Virus record (IMG/VR): IMGVR_UViG_2703718791_000006
Location: 1 to 7,301 of that record
Reading direction: 5' to 3' (one strand)
DNA length: 7,301 nucleotides
Source: a virus
Taxonomy: Duplodnaviria; Heunggongvirae; Uroviricota; Caudoviricetes
Shown piece by piece: positions 1-7,301 of the stretch (position 1 is the first letter of the stretch; every line of letters begins with the position of its first letter). The notes below the pieces were generated by a model. That model saw only the letters and a program-made list of their open reading frames with translations, made no database searches and was not told where the DNA came from. Made by a program: the position numbers and the translations under genes.

Positions 1-1
1 A

Positions 2-187
2 CACCCGCAAGGGCGGGACTCGCACAACCTGAATAAATACATCTGGCGCTTTATTGCCTTTGGCGCGTCAGAACGTCAAATCATCCACGTAACCGCCTGG
101 ACGGAACGCGAAGCGCGTAACCGTTGCCCGTCCGGTTGTGTTGCTGTATTCGCCGCCCGTATTCGTCAGGAGGTGCACCATGATTAA
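2..187 (+). CDS. 3' end of an upstream gene entering from the left edge (5'-partial); product unknown
   Basis: Frame 2 is the only frame open from the window edge to TAA at 185-187. Its stop overlaps the ATG at 180 of the next ORF (ATGATTAA), the arrangement expected for translational coupling. No start codon in window, no recognisable motif. Confidence 0.35.
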   Translation, partial: HPQGRDSHNLNKYIWRFIAFGASERQIIHVTAWTEREARNRCPSGCVAVFAARIRQEVHHD

Positions 188-392
188 TCTGTCACTTACT
201 GACCTTAACCGCATTCAGTTTCGTGAGAAATTCACAGGGCAGCTACTGGTCAATGTGGATAAAGGTCGCGTGGTGTGTAATTACCACTTACCAGATGAAG
301 CAATTGTCGCCACAAGGGAATCATTACAGGAAATCACAAAACGTGCCGGAATGATTAACACGAATATTCAGGGGATGCTTTATGCACAATAA
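180..392 (+). CDS. hypothetical small protein (70 aa from ATG 180)
   Basis: ATG at 180 lies 6 nt downstream of a perfect AGGAGG Shine-Dalgarno (168-173). The ORF track begins at GTG 138, but the SD favours ATG 180. Stop TAA 390-392 overlaps the next ORF start at 382. No recognisable family. Confidence 0.55.
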   Translation: MINLSLTDLNRIQFREKFTGQLLVNVDKGRVVCNYHLPDEAIVATRESLQEITKRAGMINTNIQGMLYAQ

Positions 393-612
393 AACCACAC
401 CGGACGCAGCAGAAGAAGCAATGCAAATACTGATACGTGCGCTCGTTGATGTTACCCACATGGTGGAGATTATGGAGAGAAAATCACAGTCGGAGCACGA
501 CAAAAGAAAACTTAAAACAATAAAAATAATTGCCAAAAACTCGCTGATAAAAGTTACAGACATCCTTAATGAGGACATTAAAAGAATAAGGGAGAAAATT
601 TGTGATGCATAA
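382..612 (+). CDS. hypothetical small protein, 76 aa, lysine-rich and predicted helical
   Basis: ATG 382 preceded by AGGGGA (369-374). Overlaps the upstream stop and the downstream start. The stretch is visibly AT-rich compared with neighbouring genes. No family recognised. Confidence 0.5.
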   Translation: MHNKTTPDAAEEAMQILIRALVDVTHMVEIMERKSQSEHDKRKLKTIKIIAKNSLIKVTDILNEDIKRIREKICDA

Positions 613-832
613 AATCCCTTTTGAAGTATTAATCCACTCTGAAAACGCATTAATTAAAGCGCGTGAAATGAATGCGTTGTTAATTAAATTAATTGAAGCA
701 ACGGAAGCTGGAGAAGAATCTTCGTCATTAATGCTTGCCGCCGTTCAGACATTACTATCGCCTGTAATTGATGAACTGGATAAGGCGATGGCAATTCACG
801 AAAATAATAACGCGCCCCACACCGGAGAATAA
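605..832 (+). CDS. hypothetical small protein, 75 aa, predicted helical
   Basis: ATG 605 preceded by GGGAGA (590-595); the track's start at 602 is a GTG. Overlaps the upstream stop at 610-612. Same size and helical character as the preceding ORF, so a tandem paralog is possible. Confidence 0.5.
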   Translation: MHKIPFEVLIHSENALIKAREMNALLIKLIEATEAGEESSSLMLAAVQTLLSPVIDELDKAMAIHENNNAPHTGE

Positions 833-837
833 AAATA

Positions 838-1137
838 ATGAAACTTAAATATTCTGGCTTAACTGCCAGTGGCAACACTCACCCTAAATTTACGCGCGGT
901 GATATTTACCGCGACCAGTACGGCGGCACGGTAATGATTAAGGGCGTGGCGGGACGGTGCGTAACTTACCGCCGTGAAGGTTACGAATATGATTGCGTGA
1001 TGCCTGTTTATCAGTTCCGGCGTGATTTTTCTCTGGTACAGACCGCGCCGCATAACGTGCCCACCAGCAACGCCAGGGCACGGGCAAACATCCAGAAGCT
1101 GAAAACCATGATTAACGTATTCAGGGGTAAAAAATGA
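838..1137 (+). CDS. hypothetical protein, 99 aa
   Basis: ATG 838 preceded by GGAG (824-827). Stop TGA 1135-1137 overlaps the helicase ATG at 1134 (ATGA coupling). No family recognised. Confidence 0.55.
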   Translation: MKLKYSGLTASGNTHPKFTRGDIYRDQYGGTVMIKGVAGRCVTYRREGYEYDCVMPVYQFRRDFSLVQTAPHNVPTSNARARANIQKLKTMINVFRGKK

Positions 1138-2882
1138 AACTGGCACCGAACGTAAAAAAACAGCCACGCGGAATAAAACACAAAGACACAGAGGTAATTA
1201 TCTTTGCGGGTAGTGATGCCTGGTCGCACGCGAAACAATGGCAGGAGCAGGATGGCCCCGCATCCGGCGATAATGTGCCGCCTGTGTGGCTTGGGCCAAA
1301 GCAGCTTGCCGAACTTGATGCGCTGAAAATTGTTCCGGATGGGAAAAAGCGCGTAAGGCTGTACCAGGCCGGAGAACTAGATTTAGTGGAGACCAAAAAG
1401 ATTGGTCAGAAGCTGGCGGCGGCAGATATTCAGGACGCAAATTTTTACCACGAAGGAATGCACGTCCAGAAGTGTGAAAACTGGCGGCGCTATCTGAATG
1501 CTGAGCGTGAAAATATTGCCGCAGGGCTTACCATGCCGGAGCAGAAAAATACGCAACTGGCACAAATGGCAGACAGTGAGCGCGCACAGATGCTTGCTGG
1601 TCGATTTGATGGCGTTTGTGTGCATCCGGAAAGTGAAATCGTTCACGTATGGCGCGGCGGGGTATGGTGTCCGGTCAGCACAATGGAACTTAGCCGCGAA
1701 ATGGTGGCGATCTATTCAGAGCACAGGGCCACTTTCAGCAAGCGCGTAATCAATAACGCCGTGGAAGCGTTAAAAGTTATTGCCGAACCAATGGGCGAGC
1801 CGTCCGGCGATTTGCTGCCGTTCGCCAATGGTGCGCTTGACCTGAAAACGGGGGAATTTTCCCCGCACACGCCGGAGAACTGGATCACCACGCACAACGG
1901 CATTGAGTACACGCCACCAGCACCAGGGGAGAATATCCGCGACAACGCGCCAAACTTTCATAAATGGCTTGAGCACGCAGCCGGAAAAGACCCGCGCAAG
2001 ATGATGCGTATATGTGCCGCGCTGTACATGATTATGGCGAACCGGTACGACTGGCAGATGTTTATTGAGGCCACCGGAGACGGCGGGAGCGGTAAAAGTA
2101 CATTCACACACATAGCCAGCCTTCTGGCAGGGAAACAGAACACGGTAAGCGCTGAAATGACATCGCTTGATGATGCTGGTGGACGTGCGCAGGTTGTCGG
2201 GAGTCGTCTTATCGTCCTGGCTGACCAGCCGAAATATACAGGCGAAGGAACGGGCATCAAGAAAATCACGGGCGGCGACCCCGTGGAAATTAACCCGAAA
2301 TATGAGAAGCGTTTTACGGCGGTAATCAGGGCGGTGGTGCTGGCTACCAACAATAACCCGATGATATTCACCGAACGGGCCGGAGGTGTGTCACGTCGTC
2401 GCGTAATTTTCCGTTTCGACAATATCGTCAGTGAGGCCGAAAAAGACAGGGAGCTACCGGAAAAGATTGCGGCTGAAATCCCTGTCATTATCCGCCGATT
2501 GCTGGCGAACTTTACCGACCCTGAGAAGGCACGGGCTTTACTACTGGAACAGCGTGACGGTGATGAAGCTCTGGCAATAAAGCAACAGACGGATCCGGTT
2601 ATTGAGTTTTGCCAGTTCCTGAATTTTCTGGAGGAAGCACGCGGCCTGATGATGGGCGGCGGTGGCGATTCAGTGAAGTACACGACCAGGAACAGCCTTT
2701 ACCGCGTCTATCTGGCGTTTATGGCATACGCAGGCAGGAGCAAACCGCTAAACGTGGCTGAGTTCAGCAAGGCCATGAAGCCAGCGGCGAAAGTTTACGG
2801 GCATGAATATATTACGCGAAAAGTTAAGGGAGTAACGCAGACCAACGCAATTACAACAGACGATTGCGACGCGTTTTTATAA
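1134..2882 (+). CDS. replication protein: P4-alpha / D5-type superfamily-3 helicase (phage/plasmid primase C-terminal-domain family)
   Basis: 582-aa ORF with Walker A GDGGSGKST (about nt 2079-2105) and a Walker B-like hydrophobic run ending in Asp (RLIVLADQ) in a central NTPase region, flanked by N- and C-terminal extensions as in P4-alpha/D5-family proteins. Last gene of a coupled operon and immediately followed by an iteron array. Whether a primase domain is present cannot be settled by eye. Confidence 0.7.
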   Translation: MKLAPNVKKQPRGIKHKDTEVIIFAGSDAWSHAKQWQEQDGPASGDNVPPVWLGPKQLAELDALKIVPDGKKRVRLYQAGELDLVETKKIGQKLAAADIQDANFYHEGMHVQKCENWRRYLNAERENIAAGLTMPEQKNTQLAQMADSERAQMLAGRFDGVCVHPESEIVHVWRGGVWCPVSTMELSREMVAIYSEHRATFSKRVINNAVEALKVIAEPMGEPSGDLLPFANGALDLKTGEFSPHTPENWITTHNGIEYTPPAPGENIRDNAPNFHKWLEHAAGKDPRKMMRICAALYMIMANRYDWQMFIEATGDGGSGKSTFTHIASLLAGKQNTVSAEMTSLDDAGGRAQVVGSRLIVLADQPKYTGEGTGIKKITGGDPVEINPKYEKRFTAVIRAVVLATNNNPMIFTERAGGVSRRRVIFRFDNIVSEAEKDRELPEKIAAEIPVIIRRLLANFTDPEKARALLLEQRDGDEALAIKQQTDPVIEFCQFLNFLEEARGLMMGGGGDSVKYTTRNSLYRVYLAFMAYAGRSKPLNVAEFSKAMKPAAKVYGHEYITRKVKGVTQTNAITTDDCDAFL

Positions 2883-2895
2883 TTTTTTGTAAAAG

Positions 2896-3124
2896 CCCTC
2901 TACCCCATCTACCTGAATGAAATAAACGCATATTATTCAACATGATAAGTGGGTAGAGGGCTAGGTAGAAGGCTAATAAAAGCTCTCTACCTCTTCTACC
3001 TGATTTTATCAGTTTCAGGTAGCAGGGTAGACGGCAGGTAGAGGAGCCCAAAAAGCTATCTACCCGCTGAAAGCCGCGCCATTACTGACATGATGAGCAT
3101 TCGGGTAGATGGGTAGAGGGGGGG
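2896..3124. repeat. iteron array, candidate satellite replication origin
   Basis: Twelve copies of GGTAGA or its complement TCTACC, often inside a longer GGGTAGAGG core. Top strand GGTAGA at 2952, 2964, 3026, 3037, 3104, 3112 and GGTAGC at 3018; TCTACC at 2899, 2908, 2986, 2995, 3059. Copies occur in pairs or triplets 9-12 bp apart, in alternating orientation blocks, with AT-rich stretches at 2915-2950 and 3125-3160. Sits between the helicase and the ssb operon. Confidence 0.6.
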
Positions 3125-3165
3125 AGGCACAACTAAAAACTTTTTAAACGAGGGGGTGAAAATAA

Positions 3166-3480
3166 ATGCGCATACATCAAAATCACTTAACAAACATGCC
3201 AGCCGAAAACATGAATCAGGGGCGACAAATGACCAAAATTCGCAGAGACAGAACAGAGCCAAAATATAAAGCGTTAGACATGACTGAGCATACCTTAAAG
3301 GTGGCAATCAGAACGATAGACCGCCACACGCGGGAAGGATACGCGAAGGAACATCCCGACCTGATAAGCGCATTCATGACCACAGCGGCGGCAAACTTTG
3401 CCACGCTGACAGAACGGGAGATTGCCGAAGCGGAACAGGTAACAACCATCAACGTTAAAACCGGAGAGGTGGAATCATGA
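3166..3480 (+). CDS. hypothetical protein, 104 aa, coupled to ssb
   Basis: ATG 3166 about 8 nt downstream of AGGGGGTG. Stop TGA 3478-3480 overlaps the ssb ATG at 3477. Alternative internal starts exist. No family recognised. Confidence 0.5.
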   Translation: MRIHQNHLTNMPAENMNQGRQMTKIRRDRTEPKYKALDMTEHTLKVAIRTIDRHTREGYAKEHPDLISAFMTTAAANFATLTEREIAEAEQVTTINVKTGEVES

Positions 3481-3887
3481 CAGCACAGATAGCCGCTTAC
3501 GGGCGGCTGGTGGACGACCCGCAGGTAAAACAGACCAGCAAGGGCACACCGATGACGCTGGCGCGTATGGCGGTCCCCCTTCCGTGCAGCCAGGCAGATG
3601 ACGGAACGGCTACGTTATGGCTATCGGTGATGGCATTTGGTAAGCAGGCCGACTTCCTGGCTAAACATCAAAAAGGCGACGTTGCCAGCATATCTGGCGT
3701 GATGCAGATAAGCCAGTGGACCGGACAGAACGGGGAAACGCGGCAGGGTTATCAGGTTATTGCAGACAGCGTAATCAGTGCCCGTGCGGCACGTCCTGGC
3801 GGGAACAGACGCAAAACCACAGGCGCACAGGGTAATCAGCCACCAGCGGGAGACGATGACCCCTACGGTGATGATATTCCGTTCTGA
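3477..3887 (+). CDS. ssb: single-stranded DNA-binding protein (short OB-fold SSB with acidic C-terminal tail)
   Basis: 136 aa. N-terminus GRLVDDPQV resembles E. coli SSB GNLGQDPEV, and an aromatic/Gly-Lys OB-fold block (WLSVMAFGKQA versus WHRVVLFGKLA) follows. A Gly/Pro/Gln-rich linker ends in DDDPYGDDIPF, the canonical SSB tail. Good SD (GGAGAGGTGG) upstream. Confidence 0.85.
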   Translation: MTAQIAAYGRLVDDPQVKQTSKGTPMTLARMAVPLPCSQADDGTATLWLSVMAFGKQADFLAKHQKGDVASISGVMQISQWTGQNGETRQGYQVIADSVISARAARPGGNRRKTTGAQGNQPPAGDDDPYGDDIPF

Positions 3888-3895
3888 ACGCACAG

Positions 3896-3919
3896 GCCGG
3901 AGAAAATCCGGCTTTTTGT
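3896..3919 (+). terminator. rho-independent terminator after ssb
   Basis: GCCGGA-gaaaa-TCCGGC hairpin (6-bp GC-rich stem) followed by TTTTT, 9 nt after the ssb stop. Confidence 0.6.
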
Positions 3920-3923
3920 ACCC

Positions 3924-3970
3924 AAAAAAAGCCCGATAAGTACAGGAGGAAGCTTATCGGGCTTTTGCTT
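3924..3970. terminator. second, possibly bidirectional, terminator hairpin
   Basis: 10-bp stem GCCCGATAAG/CTTATCGGGC with a 12-nt loop, A-run upstream (3924-3930) and TTTTG downstream. Confidence 0.45.
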
Positions 3971-4040
3971 ACGAGGTTAACAGCATGGTGACTACTGTTG
4001 CTGTAAATCATTTCATAATTTGCAACACAACTCAATTTTA

Positions 4041-4091
4041 TTGCGCAAAATGCAATCATGATTATAATCATAACTGGATGAACATCCAGTT
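4041..4091 (+). promoter_or_regulatory. candidate sigma70 promoter with two palindromic operators ahead of the capsid operon
   Basis: -35 TTGCGC (4041-4046), 16-bp spacer, -10 TATAAT (4063-4068). Perfect 14-bp palindrome ATGATTATAATCAT (4058-4071) overlaps the -10. Perfect 9-2-9 inverted repeat AACTGGATG-AA-CATCCAGTT (4072-4091) lies just downstream. Confidence 0.45.
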
Positions 4092-4124
4092 GTGATTTTT
4101 TAAGTCAAAGAGGAATTTCTGACT

Positions 4125-4331
4125 ATGGCAGAAGAGAAAAAAGGCGGTGTTTCGGTGTACATAAGCCCCGAAATCGTGGAGGTGCTCAAGCAGCGCCACA
4201 AAAAAAACTATGAGGCTGGCGTAGCGGCTGGACTGGATCCGCTGATGACGCCGGAGCCGTCGATAGGTTCACTTGTGCGCTCTTATTTACTTGCGGCGCT
4301 TGGGATGCATAAAAATTATGGGGGTGAATAA
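4125..4331 (+). CDS. hypothetical small protein, 68 aa; possible ribbon-helix-helix DNA-binding protein
   Basis: N-terminal GGVSVYISPEIVEVLKQ fits a beta-strand plus helix pattern as in Arc/CopG-type RHH proteins, and a second helix SIGSLVRSYLLAALG follows. Stop TAA 4329-4331 overlaps the capsid ATG (TAATG). The fold assignment is a guess from sequence pattern only. Confidence 0.5.
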   Translation: MAEEKKGGVSVYISPEIVEVLKQRHKKNYEAGVAAGLDPLMTPEPSIGSLVRSYLLAALGMHKNYGGE

Positions 4332-5386
4332 TGGCAGGCAAAGCAACGGCACTTAACACTAACCAGCTTTTTGCGTACCTGAATCGCGGGGATATTGCGG
4401 AATTTAAATTTAGTCCGCTGTTTACCACGCTGTTTTTCCCGAAAGTAGCGACATTCAACACCCAAAACATCATGCTGGATAACCTGGACACCGAAGAAGT
4501 CACTATGTCAGCGTTTTGCTCGCCTATGGTTGGTAGCCAGGTACAGCGCGATAAAGGGTACGAAACCAGCACGATTAAACCTGGCTACATGAAGCCAAAG
4601 CACGAAATCGATCCAACAAAAACCATCATGCGCATGGCTGGAGAAGATCCGGCACAGCTTAACGACCCAACCTATCGCCGTATGCGCCTGATTACTGGCA
4701 ACATGCGCCGCCAGGTAAACGCTATTAAAGCGCGTGTTGAATGGCTGGCGGTAAATGCGGTAACGACCGGAAAAAACATCATTGAGGGCGAAGGCATAGA
4801 GCGCTATGAAATCGACTGGAAGATACCGGAAAAAAACATCATAGAGCAGGCCGACGGGAAAAAATGGTCAGAGCAGGACAAAGAAACCCACGATCCAATC
4901 TATGATATCGAACTATACGCCGATCAGGCTGGTTGCCCCGCAAACGTCATGATTATGGGCGCTGAGGTATGGCGAACGTTACGCAGCTTTAAAAAATTCC
5001 GTGAGCTGTACGATCTTTCCCGTGGTTCAGAGTCCGCCGCAGAGCTGGCCTGTAAAAACCTGGGCGAAGTGGTGAGCTTTAAAGGCTATCTGGGCGATAT
5101 TGCCCTTATCGTCTATTCCGGCAAATACGCCGACAGCGACGGCACCGAAAAACATTTCCTTGAGCCTGATTTGCTGGTCTTGGGCAACACCAACAATAAA
5201 GGGCTGGTTGCTTATGGTGCGATTATGGATCAGGAAGCGGTAAGAACGGGCGCAACGCAAAACATGTACTACCCGAAAAACTGGATTGAGGACGGCGATC
5301 CGGCGATTGAGTACGTGCAGACGCACAGCGCACCGCAGCCGGTGCCGGCAGACATTCGCAAATTTGTTACCGTCAAAATTGGTTAA
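4331..5386 (+). CDS. major capsid protein, lambda gpE family (HK97 fold)
   Basis: 351 aa, colinear over its full length with lambda gpE (341 aa) as recalled. Conserved blocks: FKFSPLF versus FKFDPLF; PGYMKPKHEIDP versus PGYVKPKHEVNP; DPTYRRMRLITGNMR versus DPAYRRRRIIMQNMR; RGSESAAELACKNLGEVVSFKGYLGDIALIVYSGKY versus RGSNSELETAVKDLGKAVSYKGMYGDVAIVVYSGQY; YPKNWIEDGDPAIEY versus YPKNWVTTGDPAREF. SD GGGGTGA upstream. Confidence 0.9.
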   Translation: MAGKATALNTNQLFAYLNRGDIAEFKFSPLFTTLFFPKVATFNTQNIMLDNLDTEEVTMSAFCSPMVGSQVQRDKGYETSTIKPGYMKPKHEIDPTKTIMRMAGEDPAQLNDPTYRRMRLITGNMRRQVNAIKARVEWLAVNAVTTGKNIIEGEGIERYEIDWKIPEKNIIEQADGKKWSEQDKETHDPIYDIELYADQAGCPANVMIMGAEVWRTLRSFKKFRELYDLSRGSESAAELACKNLGEVVSFKGYLGDIALIVYSGKYADSDGTEKHFLEPDLLVLGNTNNKGLVAYGAIMDQEAVRTGATQNMYYPKNWIEDGDPAIEYVQTHSAPQPVPADIRKFVTVKIG

Positions 5387-5397
5387 CGGGGGATTCT

Positions 5398-5733
5398 ATG
5401 AACACTCCATACATTGAGTTATTTGCAGGCAGTCAGCAGGTATCCACGACGCTGGTACATTTTGCCGCTGATGCTGGCGTCATTCAGGAATTTACCCCGC
5501 TGATGCTGGCGGACAATGGCGAGTTTAAGCCGTGGGATGGTCAGGCGTCCGGAAAGGCTGTTTATCTGACTTCGTACCCCGTGGACACGTCAAAGCAGAA
5601 ATCAGCACAGTGCTACAAGACGGGGATCTTTAATATCGCCGCCGTGAACTGGCCCGAGAGCGTCGACACCGATGCGAAAAAATGCGCCGCCTTTGCGGGT
5701 TCTGGCGTATCCGTTCAGCCGCTGGCCCGATAA
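5398..5733 (+). CDS. head decoration protein, lambda gpD family
   Basis: 111 aa versus gpD 110 aa. Shared blocks: TPLMLAD / TPLMLD, WDG, YKTGIFN..WPE / YKSGTF..WPE, KKCAAFAGSG / KKRTAFAGT. SD GGGGGAT upstream. Gene order is capsid then decoration, the reverse of lambda's D then E. Confidence 0.8.
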   Translation: MNTPYIELFAGSQQVSTTLVHFAADAGVIQEFTPLMLADNGEFKPWDGQASGKAVYLTSYPVDTSKQKSAQCYKTGIFNIAAVNWPESVDTDAKKCAAFAGSGVSVQPLAR

Positions 5734-5745
5734 GCAGGGGGAACG

Positions 5746-6159
5746 ATGGCAACGAATGAAAGCATCATGACGCTACCGCTGGCGAGTAAATTTAAAGCCG
5801 AAGCGCGAGCAATGGCTGACAGAGGTTTATCAACCTACGAGGCCGTATATCAACTCAACAAACTGGAAGAGCAGGACAAGCCGCGCGCTGATGCGATTAT
5901 GGCGCTTCATGAGCATAACGACTATCAGCCGCTGTTACGTGCAATGGCAAACGTGCCTTGTATCGATGTTGGTACGGCTAAAAGCATCCTTAGCATGACC
6001 ATAGAGCAGGAACGCCAGAAGGTTGCGCCGGAGCTTACCGCAGCCTTTGAAAACTTTATGGACATGCACAGCCCGCAAGCCGTTTCAGCTGGCATGGCAT
6101 ACGACGGCAGAAACCCGGGCGATGATGGCGACATCGAGCGCATACTGAAAACCATCTGA
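5746..6159 (+). CDS. hypothetical protein, 137 aa, last gene of the capsid operon
   Basis: Strong SD AGGGGGA before ATG 5746 and a terminator directly after the stop. No convincing similarity to lambda FI, FII or Nu3 as recalled. Confidence 0.6.
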   Translation: MATNESIMTLPLASKFKAEARAMADRGLSTYEAVYQLNKLEEQDKPRADAIMALHEHNDYQPLLRAMANVPCIDVGTAKSILSMTIEQERQKVAPELTAAFENFMDMHSPQAVSAGMAYDGRNPGDDGDIERILKTI

Positions 6160-6165
6160 GACAAG

Positions 6166-6188
6166 GCCGGAGAAATCCGGCTTTTTTT
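6166..6188 (+). terminator. rho-independent terminator after the capsid operon, abutting cosQ
   Basis: GCCGGA-gaaa-TCCGGC hairpin followed by TTTTTTT. Near-identical to the terminator at 3896-3919. Confidence 0.6.
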
Positions 6189-6265
6189 ACGGGTCCTTTC
6201 CGGCATATGGACCCGTTACGGGGCGGCGACCTCGCGGTTTTTCGCTATTTATGACGTTTTTCCGT
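6187..6265 (+). other. lambda-type cos site, copy 1 (cosQ, cosN, I2-like proximal cosB)
   Basis: TTTACGGGTCCTTTCCGG (6187-6204) matches the lambda right-end cosQ region. GGGCGGCGACCT (6221-6232) is identical to the lambda 12-nt cohesive end, and the 17-bp spacing between them is kept. The following CGCGGTTTTTCGCTATTTATGA closely matches the lambda left end CGCGGGTTTTCGCTATTTATGA. No ATGTCCGGTT-type repeats before the terS start. Confidence 0.75.
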
Positions 6266-6269
6266 GAAG

Positions 6270-6296
6270 GTGACACCACCACCACTTGATTAATAT
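6270..6296 (+). promoter_or_regulatory. weak candidate promoter for the small terminase gene
   Basis: GTGACA (6270-6275), about 15-bp spacer, TAATAT (6291-6296). The alternative TTGATT (6286-6291) has a poor -10. Low confidence. Confidence 0.25.
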
Positions 6297-6321
6297 TTAA
6301 CCATGTAGTTAAGGTAACATT

Positions 6322-6756
6322 ATGATTGATAAAGCTTGTTTTGTAAGTCAGCAGGAAATAGCTGAACATTTCAAGGTTAACAGAACCACTATTCGCGCAT
6401 GGACCAAACAGGGGATGCCGTATCTTAATGCGGATCGCGGAAAGTCCGGCGGTTATCACATCGGGCATACATTGCTTTGGTCTTCAGGTAAAAGCCATCT
6501 TGAGGCCATTGGATATCACGTAGAAACCAGTGCGCTGGAAAAAATTATGTTTGCCAGGCTGCTTTCATCTGAGCGTGACGAGTACTCCAGTGAAGAAACA
6601 GAACATCGATTTGATGAAGGTTTGCAGATTTACGGATATTCACCGGAAGATGTGAGCAAGGCACGAAATAAAATGGCTGGCTTTCTGGCTGGGTGGCGTC
6701 ATGCCGTAAGCGTTCGCCGTGCCAGCATGGAGCAATCAGCCGATACAGAACAGTAA
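6322..6756 (+). CDS. small terminase-like protein, phage Nu1 family (N-terminal winged-HTH DNA-binding domain)
   Basis: 144 aa. N-terminus SQQEIAEHFKVNRTTIRAWTKQGMPYL parallels lambda Nu1 KKQLADIFGASIRTIQNWQEQGMPVL. It is shorter than Nu1 (181 aa) and diverges after the HTH. It sits about 90 bp downstream of the cos copy 1 cohesive end, where lambda has Nu1. Confidence 0.75.
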   Translation: MIDKACFVSQQEIAEHFKVNRTTIRAWTKQGMPYLNADRGKSGGYHIGHTLLWSSGKSHLEAIGYHVETSALEKIMFARLLSSERDEYSSEETEHRFDEGLQIYGYSPEDVSKARNKMAGFLAGWRHAVSVRRASMEQSADTEQ

Positions 6757-6824
6757 AGCCGATAACTTGTTAATCACTCGCAGCAATGCATGTGATTTGT
6801 GCACACTTTCGGTTAACTGGTTCG

Positions 6825-6921
6825 ATGTCCGGTTTTAGTGTCTGTTTTTTGCGCATGTCCGGTTCATGGAAAGCATGTTTTTATATTTTTCATATGGTTA
6901 ACTTGCAGAGAAACCGGACAT
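6825..6921. repeat. three 10-bp ATGTCCGGTT repeats in a cosB-like R-I-R-R layout (candidate small-terminase binding sites)
   Basis: ATGTCCGGTT at 6825-6834 and 6855-6864 on the top strand and inverted (AACCGGACAT) at 6912-6921, with an AT-rich stretch (about 6876-6896) between the direct pair and the inverted copy. GGTTAACT also recurs at 6810 and 6895. Lies between the terS stop and the inverted cohesive-end sequence. Confidence 0.5.
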
Positions 6922-6924
6922 GGA

Positions 6925-7003
6925 TCCCGAAAAATTTTCATAAATAGTGAAAACGCGCGAGGTCGCCGCCCCGTAACGGGCCATAATTCCAGGAAGGACC
7001 CGA
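6925..7003 (-). other. second lambda-type cos site, inverted (cosQ-like, cosN, I2-like)
   Basis: Bottom strand reads CGGGTCCTTCCTGG..CGTTACG-GGGCGGCGACCT-CGCGCGTTTTCACTATTTATGAAAATTTTT. The cohesive-end 12-mer occupies 6960-6971 on the minus strand. 6956-6980 is a perfect 25-bp inverted repeat of 6212-6236, with imperfect similarity continuing on both sides. The cosQ-like element differs from lambda at a few positions. Confidence 0.65.
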
Positions 7004-7035
7004 CGACACCAGGCTATCAGAACGATGGGGGCACA

Positions 7036-7301
7036 ATGACAGAAGCCGAACTACTGCGATTAATCCGCCGCGTTACCGGAATCAGCCAGCAGCATGACGA
7101 ACAGGGCACGCAACCGGACAGCGTGACCGCTGAAAATTATGCGCGTGTTGTTGCTGAGGTGATGCGCCGTGATGGTATTGAGCTTAACGGCGTGGATATG
7201 CGCAACATACGAACCAGAGTCCTTGAGTTGCTGGCATACCGTCGCCGCGTGGAGATGTATCGGGAGAAGGAGAAAATCACGTACCACTGGAAGAAGCCGG
7301 A
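7036..7301 (+). CDS. 5' part of an ORF running off the right edge; product unknown
   Basis: ATG 7036 preceded by GATGGGGG, open in frame 1 to the window end (MTEAELLRLIRRVTGISQQHDEQ...). Not in the ORF track because it has no stop in window. No match to the lambda gpA N-terminus; resemblance to the lambda FI N-terminus is too weak to call. Confidence 0.45.
   Translation, partial: MTEAELLRLIRRVTGISQQHDEQGTQPDSVTAENYARVVAEVMRRDGIELNGVDMRNIRTRVLELLAYRRRVEMYREKEKITYHWKKP

Follow-up and report, generated by a model that had tools for sequence, protein, structure and literature searches.

A conserved cassette of lambda head-shell homologues in an EcCICFT073-type Rpp/cos PICI of Escherichia coli

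Genes and sites of the locus

The stretch of DNA analysed here (the window) is the whole of one draft-assembly contig, LOGC01000221.1, 7,301 bp in length. Its genes and sites are collected in Table 1.

Table 1. Features of the 7,301-bp window and the evidence on which each call is based.
Feature	Position	Strand	Evidence and remarks
Icd-like cell-division-inhibitor gene, 3′ part	29–187	+	Gene call on contig; contig starts inside early region
Three small overlapping ORFs, no assigned function	180–392, 382–612, 605–832	+	phrog_340, phrog_5146, phrog_2196
DUF4222 protein	838–1137	+	PF13973, 2e-23; overlaps pri-rep start
pri-rep, replication initiator/helicase of P4-alpha/D5 type, 582 aa	1134–2882	+	Pfam, PHROG, TIGR
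Replication origin	2890–3125		11 iterons with a GGTAGA core, in either orientation, surrounding an AT-rich stretch
Small protein, no assigned function	3166–3480	+	phrog_1231, 1.9e-52
SSB (single-stranded DNA-binding protein)	3477–3887	+	PF00436, 3.5e-15
Three strong hairpins, then T runs	3895–3917, 3930–3966, 4066–4097	+	Folding z -3.6, -5.4, -5.4
p68, 68-aa protein, no assigned function	4125–4331	+	phrog_3255, 8.5e-46; stop overlaps capsid start codon (ATGA)
gpE-like major capsid protein, homologue of c1499	4331–5386	+	PF03864 (Phage_cap_E), 2.2e-52
gpD-like head decoration protein, homologue of c1500	5398–5733	+	PF02924 (HDPD), 5.6e-18
p137, 137 aa, homologue of gpC/Nu3 C-terminal domain (~85 residues)	5746–6159	+	PHROG, BLASTP
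Intrinsic terminator closing the capsid cassette	6165–6188	+	GGCCGGAGAAATCCGGC then T7; -17.7 kcal/mol, z -4.1
cos1	6190–6321	+	cosQ-like 6190–6203, cosN 6221–6232, short island-specific cosB up to rpp
rppA, redirecting-phage-packaging protein	6322–6756	+	142/144 residues as in EcCICFT073 c1503 (99%)
cos2, complete phage-type cosQ-cosN-cosB, inverted relative to cos1	6825–7003	-	Exact cosN 6960–6971
93-aa gene, 5′ part, no assigned function	7036–7301	+	phrog_1561, 7.5e-56; last conserved island gene

In the early region, the STEC434 homologue of the truncated first gene is annotated as Icd-like and matches phrog_1743 and phrog_29966, and the order of the three small ORFs that follow is kept in two relatives (L001 and L005). 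Pri-rep has domain matches to D5_N (8e-15), DUF5906 (4.6e-10) and Pox_D5 (3.4e-4), matches phrog_864 at 5e-169 and scores 109.2 bits against TIGR01613, the P4-family primase C-terminal domain, for which the cut-off is 108.7 bits. These matches bear out the P4-alpha/D5-type helicase called in the initial annotation of this DNA, which was made from the sequence without database searches. The iteron origin proposed at the same time is likewise borne out, since all 11 GGTAGA hexamers of the window are clustered within 2899–3117, where 1.6 are expected window-wide and 11 were reached in none of 200 shuffles. The mapped PICI ori likewise lies 3′ of pri-rep (PMC6092414). The small protein in front of SSB has relatives annotated with a later start, and the SSB call itself stands with its PF00436 match. 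The replication module held in common with capsid-forming PICIs ends with the stop codon of SSB.

The capsid cassette

The three hairpins that follow SSB have the appearance of terminators that insulate the capsid cassette; the third, a 14-bp palindrome overlapping TATAAT, could instead be an operator. Hairpin terminators, as predicted by folding, flank the cassette on both sides. A consensus promoter scan gave fewer sites than were found in shuffled sequences, and no promoter is therefore claimed for the cassette.

The first product, p68, has no Pfam match at E<5. The capsid protein is 44% identical to lambda gpE over its full length, 45% identical to the capsid protein of the CFT073 icd prophage and 96% identical to c1499 of EcCICFT073, the island used in the knockouts discussed below. 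Among 50,697 phage records, it is at most 48% identical to any capsid, and the gene is therefore no recent capture. The decoration protein is 36% identical to lambda gpD. Both proteins had been named gpE-like and gpD-like from the outset, and profile searches uphold the two calls (Phage_cap_E, 2e-52; HDPD, 5.6e-18).

The statement that the locus has no scaffold gene has to be revised, since p137 is homologous to the C-terminal part of gpC/Nu3. The protein matches phrog_1999 at 6e-65 and the C-terminus of phrog_53 at 5.5e-8, and residues 117–200 of lambda Nu3 match phrog_1999 at 2.7e-26. BLASTP aligns p137 with residues 416–498 of a 501-aa S49 peptidase of the CFT073 icd prophage (3e-8) and with P0042 (7e-11). 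Word-indexed searches for homologues returned close E. coli relatives only; an exhaustive search gave nine matches, among which P0042 alone was informative. The homology rests on the PHROG profiles and on BLASTP to the longer gpC proteins, the hhalign comparison of a shallow p137 alignment with lambda Nu3 alone being weak (probability 7%, E 0.005) and the AlphaFold model all-helical and of low confidence (pLDDT 52). Because both the S49 protease domain and the N-terminal half of Nu3 are absent from p137, it is a domain homologue rather than a full member of the gpC-Nu3 family. The PGAP name given to its relatives, "phage head-tail connector protein", is explained by no NCBIfam model.

Strong purifying selection acts on the capsid and decoration genes. 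Compared pairwise with three islands, the capsid gene has a dN/dS of 0.07–0.10 (0.10 against c1499), the decoration gene one of 0.035–0.10 and p137 one of 0.14–0.34. Against EcCICFT073, purifying selection on the capsid and decoration genes is at least as strong as that on the replication genes. At a coverage of at least 80%, the cassette occurs in 590 of the 5,426 complete E. coli genomes searched. The architecture, first thought unusual, is in fact the model Gram-negative PICI layout. A capsid gene has been reported in 21 of 29 reference Gram-negative PICIs (PMC10111431).

cos sites and Rpp at the right end

The cosN of cos1 is the exact 12-nt sequence GGGCGGCGACCT. In alignment with lambda, conservation extends over the cosQ-like sequence and the bases immediately right of cosN, whereas cosB1 has diverged. 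The cos1 region differs from the functional cos1 of EcCICFT073 at 3 positions in 166 nt (98% identical) and also matches the cos region of phage 21. The exact cosN and the lambda alignment confirm the lambda-type cos that had been noted, and the island-specific cosB adjoining rpp supports the view that the element has a cosB specificity of its own.

The gene that follows cos1 had been taken for a short Nu1-like small terminase. This assignment does not hold, since the protein is RppA and resembles Nu1 N-terminally only. It matches the RppC structure 6hlk at 4e-32. The likeness to Nu1 is confined to the N-terminal winged-helix region, residues 8–56 (pairwise E 4e-6), the match to phrog_57 spans residues 7–46 only, and there is no Phage_Nu1 Pfam match at E<0.01. 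A Nu1-type small terminase was rejected as a candidate for this gene, the protein not being a full-length TerS with a TerL-binding C-terminal domain. Rpp is an adaptor that binds the TerS of the helper and is not a small terminase (PMC6739421); judged from its sequence, the RppA of the window would be expected to bind the helper's TerS. In two sister islands (L005 and L008), the rpp slot holds a 180-aa Phage_Nu1 protein.

The second exact cosN, on the minus strand, had been missed earlier. Over 179 nt, the cos2 site to which it belongs is 93.3% identical to the cos region that PhiR12-type phages carry directly in front of Nu1, and EcCICFT073 also has two cos sites (PMC6092414). The 93-aa gene at the end of the window is found as well 3′ of the head cassette of a capsid-forming PICI, with 86.8% identity to positions 19673–19938 of that island (L006).

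Identity of the element

These features, together with those of related islands, make it highly probable that the window covers the middle and right-hand portion of a classical EcCICFT073-type Rpp/cos PICI of E. coli. Nucleotide identity is 92% to EcCICFT073 across 88% of the window and 97% to the STEC434 island across 99% of it; one relative (L007) is 98.6% identical, and E. coli islands other than EcCICFT073 stand at 97–99%. Relatives with 92–97% identity carry integrase and alpA upstream, have att direct repeats of 21 and 31 nt that lie ~11.2–11.3 kb apart, show the same gene order as the window and give way to host genes ~1 kb past the 93-aa gene. In L007, this gene stands alone between rpp and host clpS. 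The integration sites vary (tqsA, cspD/clpS or roxA/phoQ). The whole island is probably ~11 kb long, and its integrase and alpA end would lie off this contig. The window is without integrase, alpA and att because the contig ends, and the status of a complete mobile island rests on the relatives.

The ORF list and the Pfam and PHROG scans of the window gave no portal-, protease-, TerL-, tail- or lysis-like ORF, in agreement with the initial annotation as to portal, protease, large terminase and tail genes. The close relatives likewise have no portal, protease, TerL, tail or lysis gene. A satellite of a lambdoid helper, as had been suggested, is borne out by the integrase, alpA, att and host flanks of the relatives and by the phage genes missing from them, and the suggestion that it replicates on its own by pri-rep and the iteron origin in the window. 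The replication, SSB, capsid, decoration and cos features that had been listed are all on the plus strand, as stated.

The lambda-family capsid, decoration and cos sequences could also be read as a rearranged or decayed fragment of a lambdoid prophage. We consider this extremely improbable. Islands of the same architecture are att-bounded and, wherever both flanks were read, embedded between host genes, and they lack other phage structural or lysis genes, host clpS lying downstream in L007; for the relatives, a prophage fragment is already refuted. Moreover, no gene is disrupted and all evolve under purifying selection, satellite hallmarks are present in the P4-type pri-rep, the PICI-type origin and Rpp, and the capsid protein is far from any capsid in the phage collection.

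Packaging and the knockout data from EcCICFT073

The EcCICFT073-type island has served as a model since 2018 (Fillol-Salom et al. 2018 and 2019), and helper-dependent induction, packaging and high-frequency transfer come from experiments in EcCICFT073 only (PMC6092414). In the window's island, the course of events established there would be as follows. A lambdoid helper prophage would induce the island, which would excise and replicate with a pri-rep of its own at the iteron origin directly 3′ of that gene. In complex with RppA, the helper small terminase would no longer recognise the phage cosB and would recognise the island cos1, as in the Rpp-TerS retargeting of packaging (PMC6739421). The helper large terminase would cut at the lambda-type cosN, and island concatemers would go into full-size heads, the portal, protease, terminase and tails not being island-encoded. 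Packaging of a helper of the lambda/phi80 type would be blocked.

The genetic data on the capsid genes come from the same island. The resident helper prophages transferred the island no less when c1499 was replaced or deleted or when c1500 was deleted, and lambda and phi80 moved the c1499::cat island too; neither deletion relieved the interference with lambda, the DNA packaged with lambda as helper was all phage-sized, and the authors reported no phenotype for c1499 (PMC6092414). When post-ori genes were over-expressed singly, c1503 (rpp) alone inhibited lambda and phi80 (PMC6739421). In the library of papers searched, there was no later one giving c1499 or c1500 a function. Since the knockouts brought no loss of transfer, and the lambda-packaged DNA was phage-sized, the earlier claim that the satellite supplies its own shell is not supported. 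The p68/gpE-like/gpD-like/Nu3-C-terminal-like cassette is a conserved accessory "late" module that is dispensable for laboratory transfer. Given its terminator insulation and the purifying selection on it, the cassette is probably expressed late.

Possible roles of the cassette

With the exception of p68, every cassette product has a homologue among the head-shell proteins of lambda (gpE, gpD and, for p137, the C-terminal domain of gpC/Nu3). These products would probably be taken into procapsids nucleated by the helper and serve there as mixed or alternative subunits of the shell, with the Nu3-like domain directed to the procapsid interior and the gpD-like protein stabilising lattice positions made by the island gpE-like protein. 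With lambda, phi80 and the CFT073 helper, this contribution to the shell may be redundant, and it may matter only with certain helpers or under certain conditions. The c1499 and c1500 deletions, which had no transfer or interference phenotype, speak against such a role, as does the lack of lambda inhibition by any singly over-expressed post-ori gene other than c1503. In its definite form, the proposal is that with some natural lambdoid helpers the gpE-like, gpD-like and Nu3-C-terminal-like proteins are built into the transducing particles, giving mixed or island-only shells, possibly of another size, nucleated on the portal and processed by the protease of the helper. To this we give a low but appreciable probability. 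Such incorporation would have escaped the laboratory knockouts, made with lambda, phi80 and the CFT073 helper, because helper shells can substitute. If true, it would amount to a minimal three-gene "shell-only" piracy, between that of classical and that of capsid-forming PICIs.

Decoration proteins of the gpD type, as lambda gpD, are useful only on expanded shells, and the presence of one in the cassette favours a stronger reading in which the satellite's normal vehicle is its own shell of gpE-, gpD- and Nu3-like proteins, maybe of another size, and the helper gives portal, protease, terminase and tails. The co-inheritance of a complete trio of lambda shell homologues under purifying selection points in the same direction. 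There are also precedents, in that SaPIbov5 Ccm leads to small capsids and PmCI172, which carries a capsid homologue, likewise has small ones (PMC6092414); capsid-forming PICIs build their own heads. Nevertheless, an own shell as the normal vehicle is unlikely, since the CFT073 helper transferred the c1499::cat island and the c1499 and c1500 deletion islands at least as well as the comparison island, and the transfer by lambda and phi80, the phage-sized DNA and the lack of a reported c1499 phenotype all speak against it.

Strong conservation without any transfer phenotype would also fit an interference device, in which the gpE-like and Nu3-like proteins poison or divert the head assembly of non-preferred lambdoid phages. 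Satellites often disturb helper morphogenesis, and p137, which consists only of the C-terminal domain shared by gpC and Nu3, could compete with the protease or scaffold of the helper. This role is improbable too: lambda plaquing was not restored by deletion of c1499 or c1500, rpp alone among the cloned post-ori genes was inhibitory, and a decoration protein is poorly explained by a pure poison model. In addition, PADLOC matched no defence model in the window and gave a trivial helix-turn-helix match for Rpp only.

The island type is already known and its packaging mechanism is already solved structurally, so that the window has little importance as a discovery. What the accessory cassette does is a real question, already recognised in the literature as open, in that many Gram-negative PICIs keep a capsid gene without a laboratory phenotype. 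The present data sharpen this puzzle. There are three lambda head-shell homologues, with the Nu3/gpC C-terminal one, and not two; the capsid and decoration genes are under purifying selection; the capsid has diverged deeply from sequenced phage capsids; and the cassette is swappable. Taken together, they give a case that particle proteomics with natural helpers could test.

Comparison with known systems

Satellite P4 resembles the window in its replication protein, which is alpha-type (D5/P4-family), and in a cos of the helper type. However, Pfam and PHROG scans of the window gave no sid, psu or delta, an Rfam scan gave no P4-type immunity RNA at E<0.1, and the cos is lambda-type and not P2-type. 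The helper of P4 is P2-like, whereas that of the window's island is lambdoid, with packaging specificity that comes from Rpp. SaPIbov5 is likewise a cos-packaged satellite with a homologue of the helper major capsid protein (Ccm). Its Ccm redirects the size of the capsid and also interferes with the helper, two effects that the EcCICFT073 capsid homologue did not show, and the two satellites are of Gram-positive and Gram-negative lineage, with unrelated sequences. The helper-embedded 11capE (PMC10111431) is a Gram-negative PICI of 11 kb whose late zone holds a lambda-E-family capsid gene of its own; it sits inside the helper capsid gene, whereas the relatives of the window occupy chromosomal sites.

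Capsid-forming PICIs build small heads of their own; their genes comprise those for an HK97-type capsid, S78 protease, portal, connectors, HNH, TerS and TerL. Instead of this complete head set, the window has only the gpE-, gpD- and Nu3-C-terminal-like genes together with Rpp and cos. At the same time, the pri-rep protein of the capsid-forming PICI L006 (EcCIEDL933 type), whose 17-nt att repeats lie ~14.2 kb apart, is identical to that of the window; nucleotide identity is 99% over window positions 602–3887, where it ends with SSB, and the terminal 93-aa gene is the same. On this identical replication backbone, the cassette behaves as a swappable alternative to the complete head module.

EcCICFT073 differs from the window in a PerC-like gene between SSB and p68, which the window does not have, in the early small ORFs and in the lower identity of pri-rep (only 90%) and p68 (only 68%). 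Otherwise, the two islands have the same gene order from the Icd-like to the 93-aa gene, the same type of iteron origin, the same cos1 and an alignment that is unbroken through the cos2 region, with protein identities of 99% for RppA and 96% each for the capsid protein, the decoration protein and p137.

Identity of the element and its relatives

The window holds a new allele of an element that was already known, so the satellite proposed in the initial annotation, whose observations were largely correct, is not a new one. Among complete E. coli genomes, megablast aligned STEC434 to 99% of the window at 97% identity, and CFT073 (1,380,869-1,388,638) to 88% of it at 92% identity. The CFT073 match falls on EcCICFT073, the model Gram-negative phage-inducible chromosomal island (PICI), which lies between roxA and phoQ. 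The window is identical to a complete contig (LOGC01000221.1, assembly GCA_001606595.1) and, therefore, no extension is possible in its own assembly. In the relatives, a tyrosine integrase and an AlpA-type regulator lie upstream of the same gene string, and downstream come one 93-aa gene, in some of them another small ORF, and after that the host genes. The island site in STEC434 and JNE181771 is tqsA, while host clpS lies downstream of the island in a close relative (98.6% identity). Direct repeats of 21 and 31 nt flank the 11.2-11.3 kb islands of relatives, and these islands carry no portal, protease, large terminase, tail or lysis genes. The flanks of the relatives therefore do not hold a full lambdoid gene set, and the reading of the element as a satellite stands.

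The att direct repeats share a common GGTGTAGT core in islands at three chromosomal sites (4517/15854 in L001, the STEC434 island; 5005/16224 in L002, the CFT073 island; 6917/21085 in L006, a capsid-forming PICI relative).

Replication module and exchange of the late region

According to the ORF listing, all substantial ORFs of the window are on the plus strand. Profile searches bore out the earlier replication, SSB, capsid and decoration assignments (see table). The replication protein (pri-rep) also matches phrog_864 at 5e-169 among the PHROG profiles, and its TIGR01613 score is barely over the cut-off. All 11 GGTAGA copies in the window fall within the origin, compared with an expectation of 1.6 for the whole window; in 200 shuffles, the count always stayed below 11.

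Features of the window
Feature	Position	Strand	Evidence
P4-alpha/D5-type replication protein (pri-rep), 582 aa	1134-2882	+	D5_N 8e-15, DUF5906 4.6e-10, Pox_D5 3.4e-4
Iteron origin, gap after replication gene	2899-3117 (GGTAGA hexamers)	both orientations	
SSB	3477-3887	+	profile search
lambda-E-family major capsid protein	4331-5386	+	Phage_cap_E 2.2e-52; 44% identical to lambda gpE, full length
gpD-family decoration protein	5398-5733	+	HDPD 5.6e-18; 36% identical to gpD
p137, scaffold-related 137-aa ORF	5746-6159	+	phrog_1999 6e-65
cos1 cosN	6221-6232		exact lambda cosN GGGCGGCGACCT
cos2, second exact cosN	cosN 6960-6971; region 6825-7003	minus	exact cosN match

L006 encodes an identical pri-rep protein, with 99% DNA identity over window 602-3887 (L006 9469-12754). 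Past the SSB stop, L006 instead carries a full head set of the capsid-forming PICI type (HK97-type capsid, S78 protease, portal, connectors, HNH, TerS and TerL), and its sequence rejoins the window at the 93-aa gene (L006 19673-19938, window 7036-7301). Since one breakpoint coincides exactly with the SSB stop codon and the other precedes the 93-aa gene, the late region is exchanged as a cassette. Between the SSB gene and the capsid cassette (4125-6159) there are three strong hairpins with T runs (3895-4097). The first (3895-3912) has almost the same sequence as the hairpin at 6165-6181, and this near-copy (6165-6188) ends the cassette. The third, at 4066-4097, forms a 14-bp palindrome that overlaps a perfect TATAAT and, thus, may be an operator.

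RppA and the two cos sites

The 144-aa ORF at 6322-6756, previously described as a short Nu1-like small terminase, is RppA. It is identical at 142 of 144 residues to the CFT073 protein at the same position and matches the RppC crystal structure 6hlk at 4e-32; its likeness to lambda Nu1 is confined to the N-terminal DNA-binding region (residues 8-56). In EcCICFT073, c1503 encodes the 144-residue RppA, and the complex of RppA with the helper small terminase ignores the phage cos site and recognizes that of the island (PMC6739421). The cos1 region of EcCICFT073 has been shown by experiment to work, and the window's version departs from it at 3 of 166 positions. Relative to lambda, the cosQ-like sequence upstream and the stretch just right of cosN are conserved, and the similarity ends beyond. 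In two sister islands (L005 12290-12832; L008 6020-6562), a 180-aa Nu1-family TerS takes the place of the segment with cosB1 and rpp (window about 6260-6927). The C-terminal half of this TerS shares 50% identity with PhiR12 Nu1; its N-terminal 60 residues gave no significant match, and the protein is not significantly similar to Rpp.

The 179-nt cos2 region shares 93% identity with an entire cosQ-cosN-cosB from PhiR12-type lambdoid phages, three CCGGACAT-type repeats included, and the match stops 48 nt short of the phages' Nu1 gene. Thus, cos2 has all the elements of a phage-type cos site, in the opposite orientation to cos1, and could therefore allow Rpp-independent packaging by this phage group. 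Two functional cos sites have been published for EcCICFT073, and the main text makes no mention of their orientation (PMC6092414).

The steps of the packaging pathway were shown for the model island, and near-identity suggests that they apply to the window. Helper-induced excision would be followed by replication from pri-rep and the iteron origin. Rpp would then retarget helper TerS to cos1, helper TerL would cut at cosN, and concatemers would be packaged into full-size heads, with the other parts coming from the helper.

Contribution of the capsid cassette

The initial annotation listed no scaffold. However, p137 is scaffold-related: its family, phrog_1999, is matched by lambda Nu3 residues 117-200 at 2.7e-26, and p137 also matches the head-protease family phrog_53 at that family's C-terminal end. 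BLASTP aligns it to residues 416-498 of a 501-aa S49 peptidase (a gpC homologue) of the CFT073 icd prophage (3e-8). Moreover, it aligns at 7e-11 to P0042, a 195-aa triple-repeat protein that matches Nu3 at 2e-16. With gpE, gpD and the gpC/Nu3 C-terminal domain, three lambda head-shell proteins thus have homologues in the cassette. The PGAP/RefSeq label of p137 relatives, "phage head-tail connector protein", is unsupported in NCBIfam or Pfam, and none of the profile searches backs it.

The capsid and decoration proteins correspond to c1499 and c1500 of EcCICFT073 (96% protein identity each). The cassette is under purifying selection, with dN/dS, in pairwise comparisons against three islands, of 0.07-0.10 (capsid), 0.035-0.10 (decoration) and 0.14-0.34 (p137); pri-rep has 0.20 against EcCICFT073. 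Among the capsids of 50,697 phage records, none exceeds 48% identity to the window's capsid protein, and the capsid of the CFT073 icd prophage reaches 45%. The capsid therefore represents an old lineage that has been maintained, rather than one captured recently. The first gene of the cassette is a 68-aa ORF (p68, 4125-4331) whose overlap with the capsid gene in an ATGA couples the two in translation. Identity to the CFT073 counterpart is only 68% for p68, against 96% for the capsid protein, and phrog_3255 is the one family to which p68 is assigned.

It was proposed earlier that the island supplies its own shell. An obligatory island-made shell is contradicted by published EcCICFT073 experiments: deletion of c1499 or c1500 left transfer by resident prophages unchanged, a c1499::cat island transferred at 1e5 with the natural helper, 1e3 with lambda and 1e6 with phi80, DNA encapsidated with lambda was all phage-sized, and the authors report no phenotype for c1499 (PMC6092414). 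The same knockouts disfavor a role in interference with other phages, as neither deletion relieved interference with lambda (PMC6092414); among genes cloned from the post-origin region, only c1503 inhibited lambda (PMC6739421). With helpers other than those studied, either role may still apply. More probably, the cassette proteins are incorporated into procapsids nucleated by the helper, where they would serve as alternative or mixed shell subunits, and this contribution is probably redundant with the helpers examined to date.

The four-gene cassette is present at ≥80% coverage in 590 of 5,426 complete E. coli genomes. In a published survey, 21 of 29 reference Gram-negative PICIs carry a capsid gene, which is not needed for transfer (PMC10111431). 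The arrangement, first taken to be unusual, is therefore common and already described.
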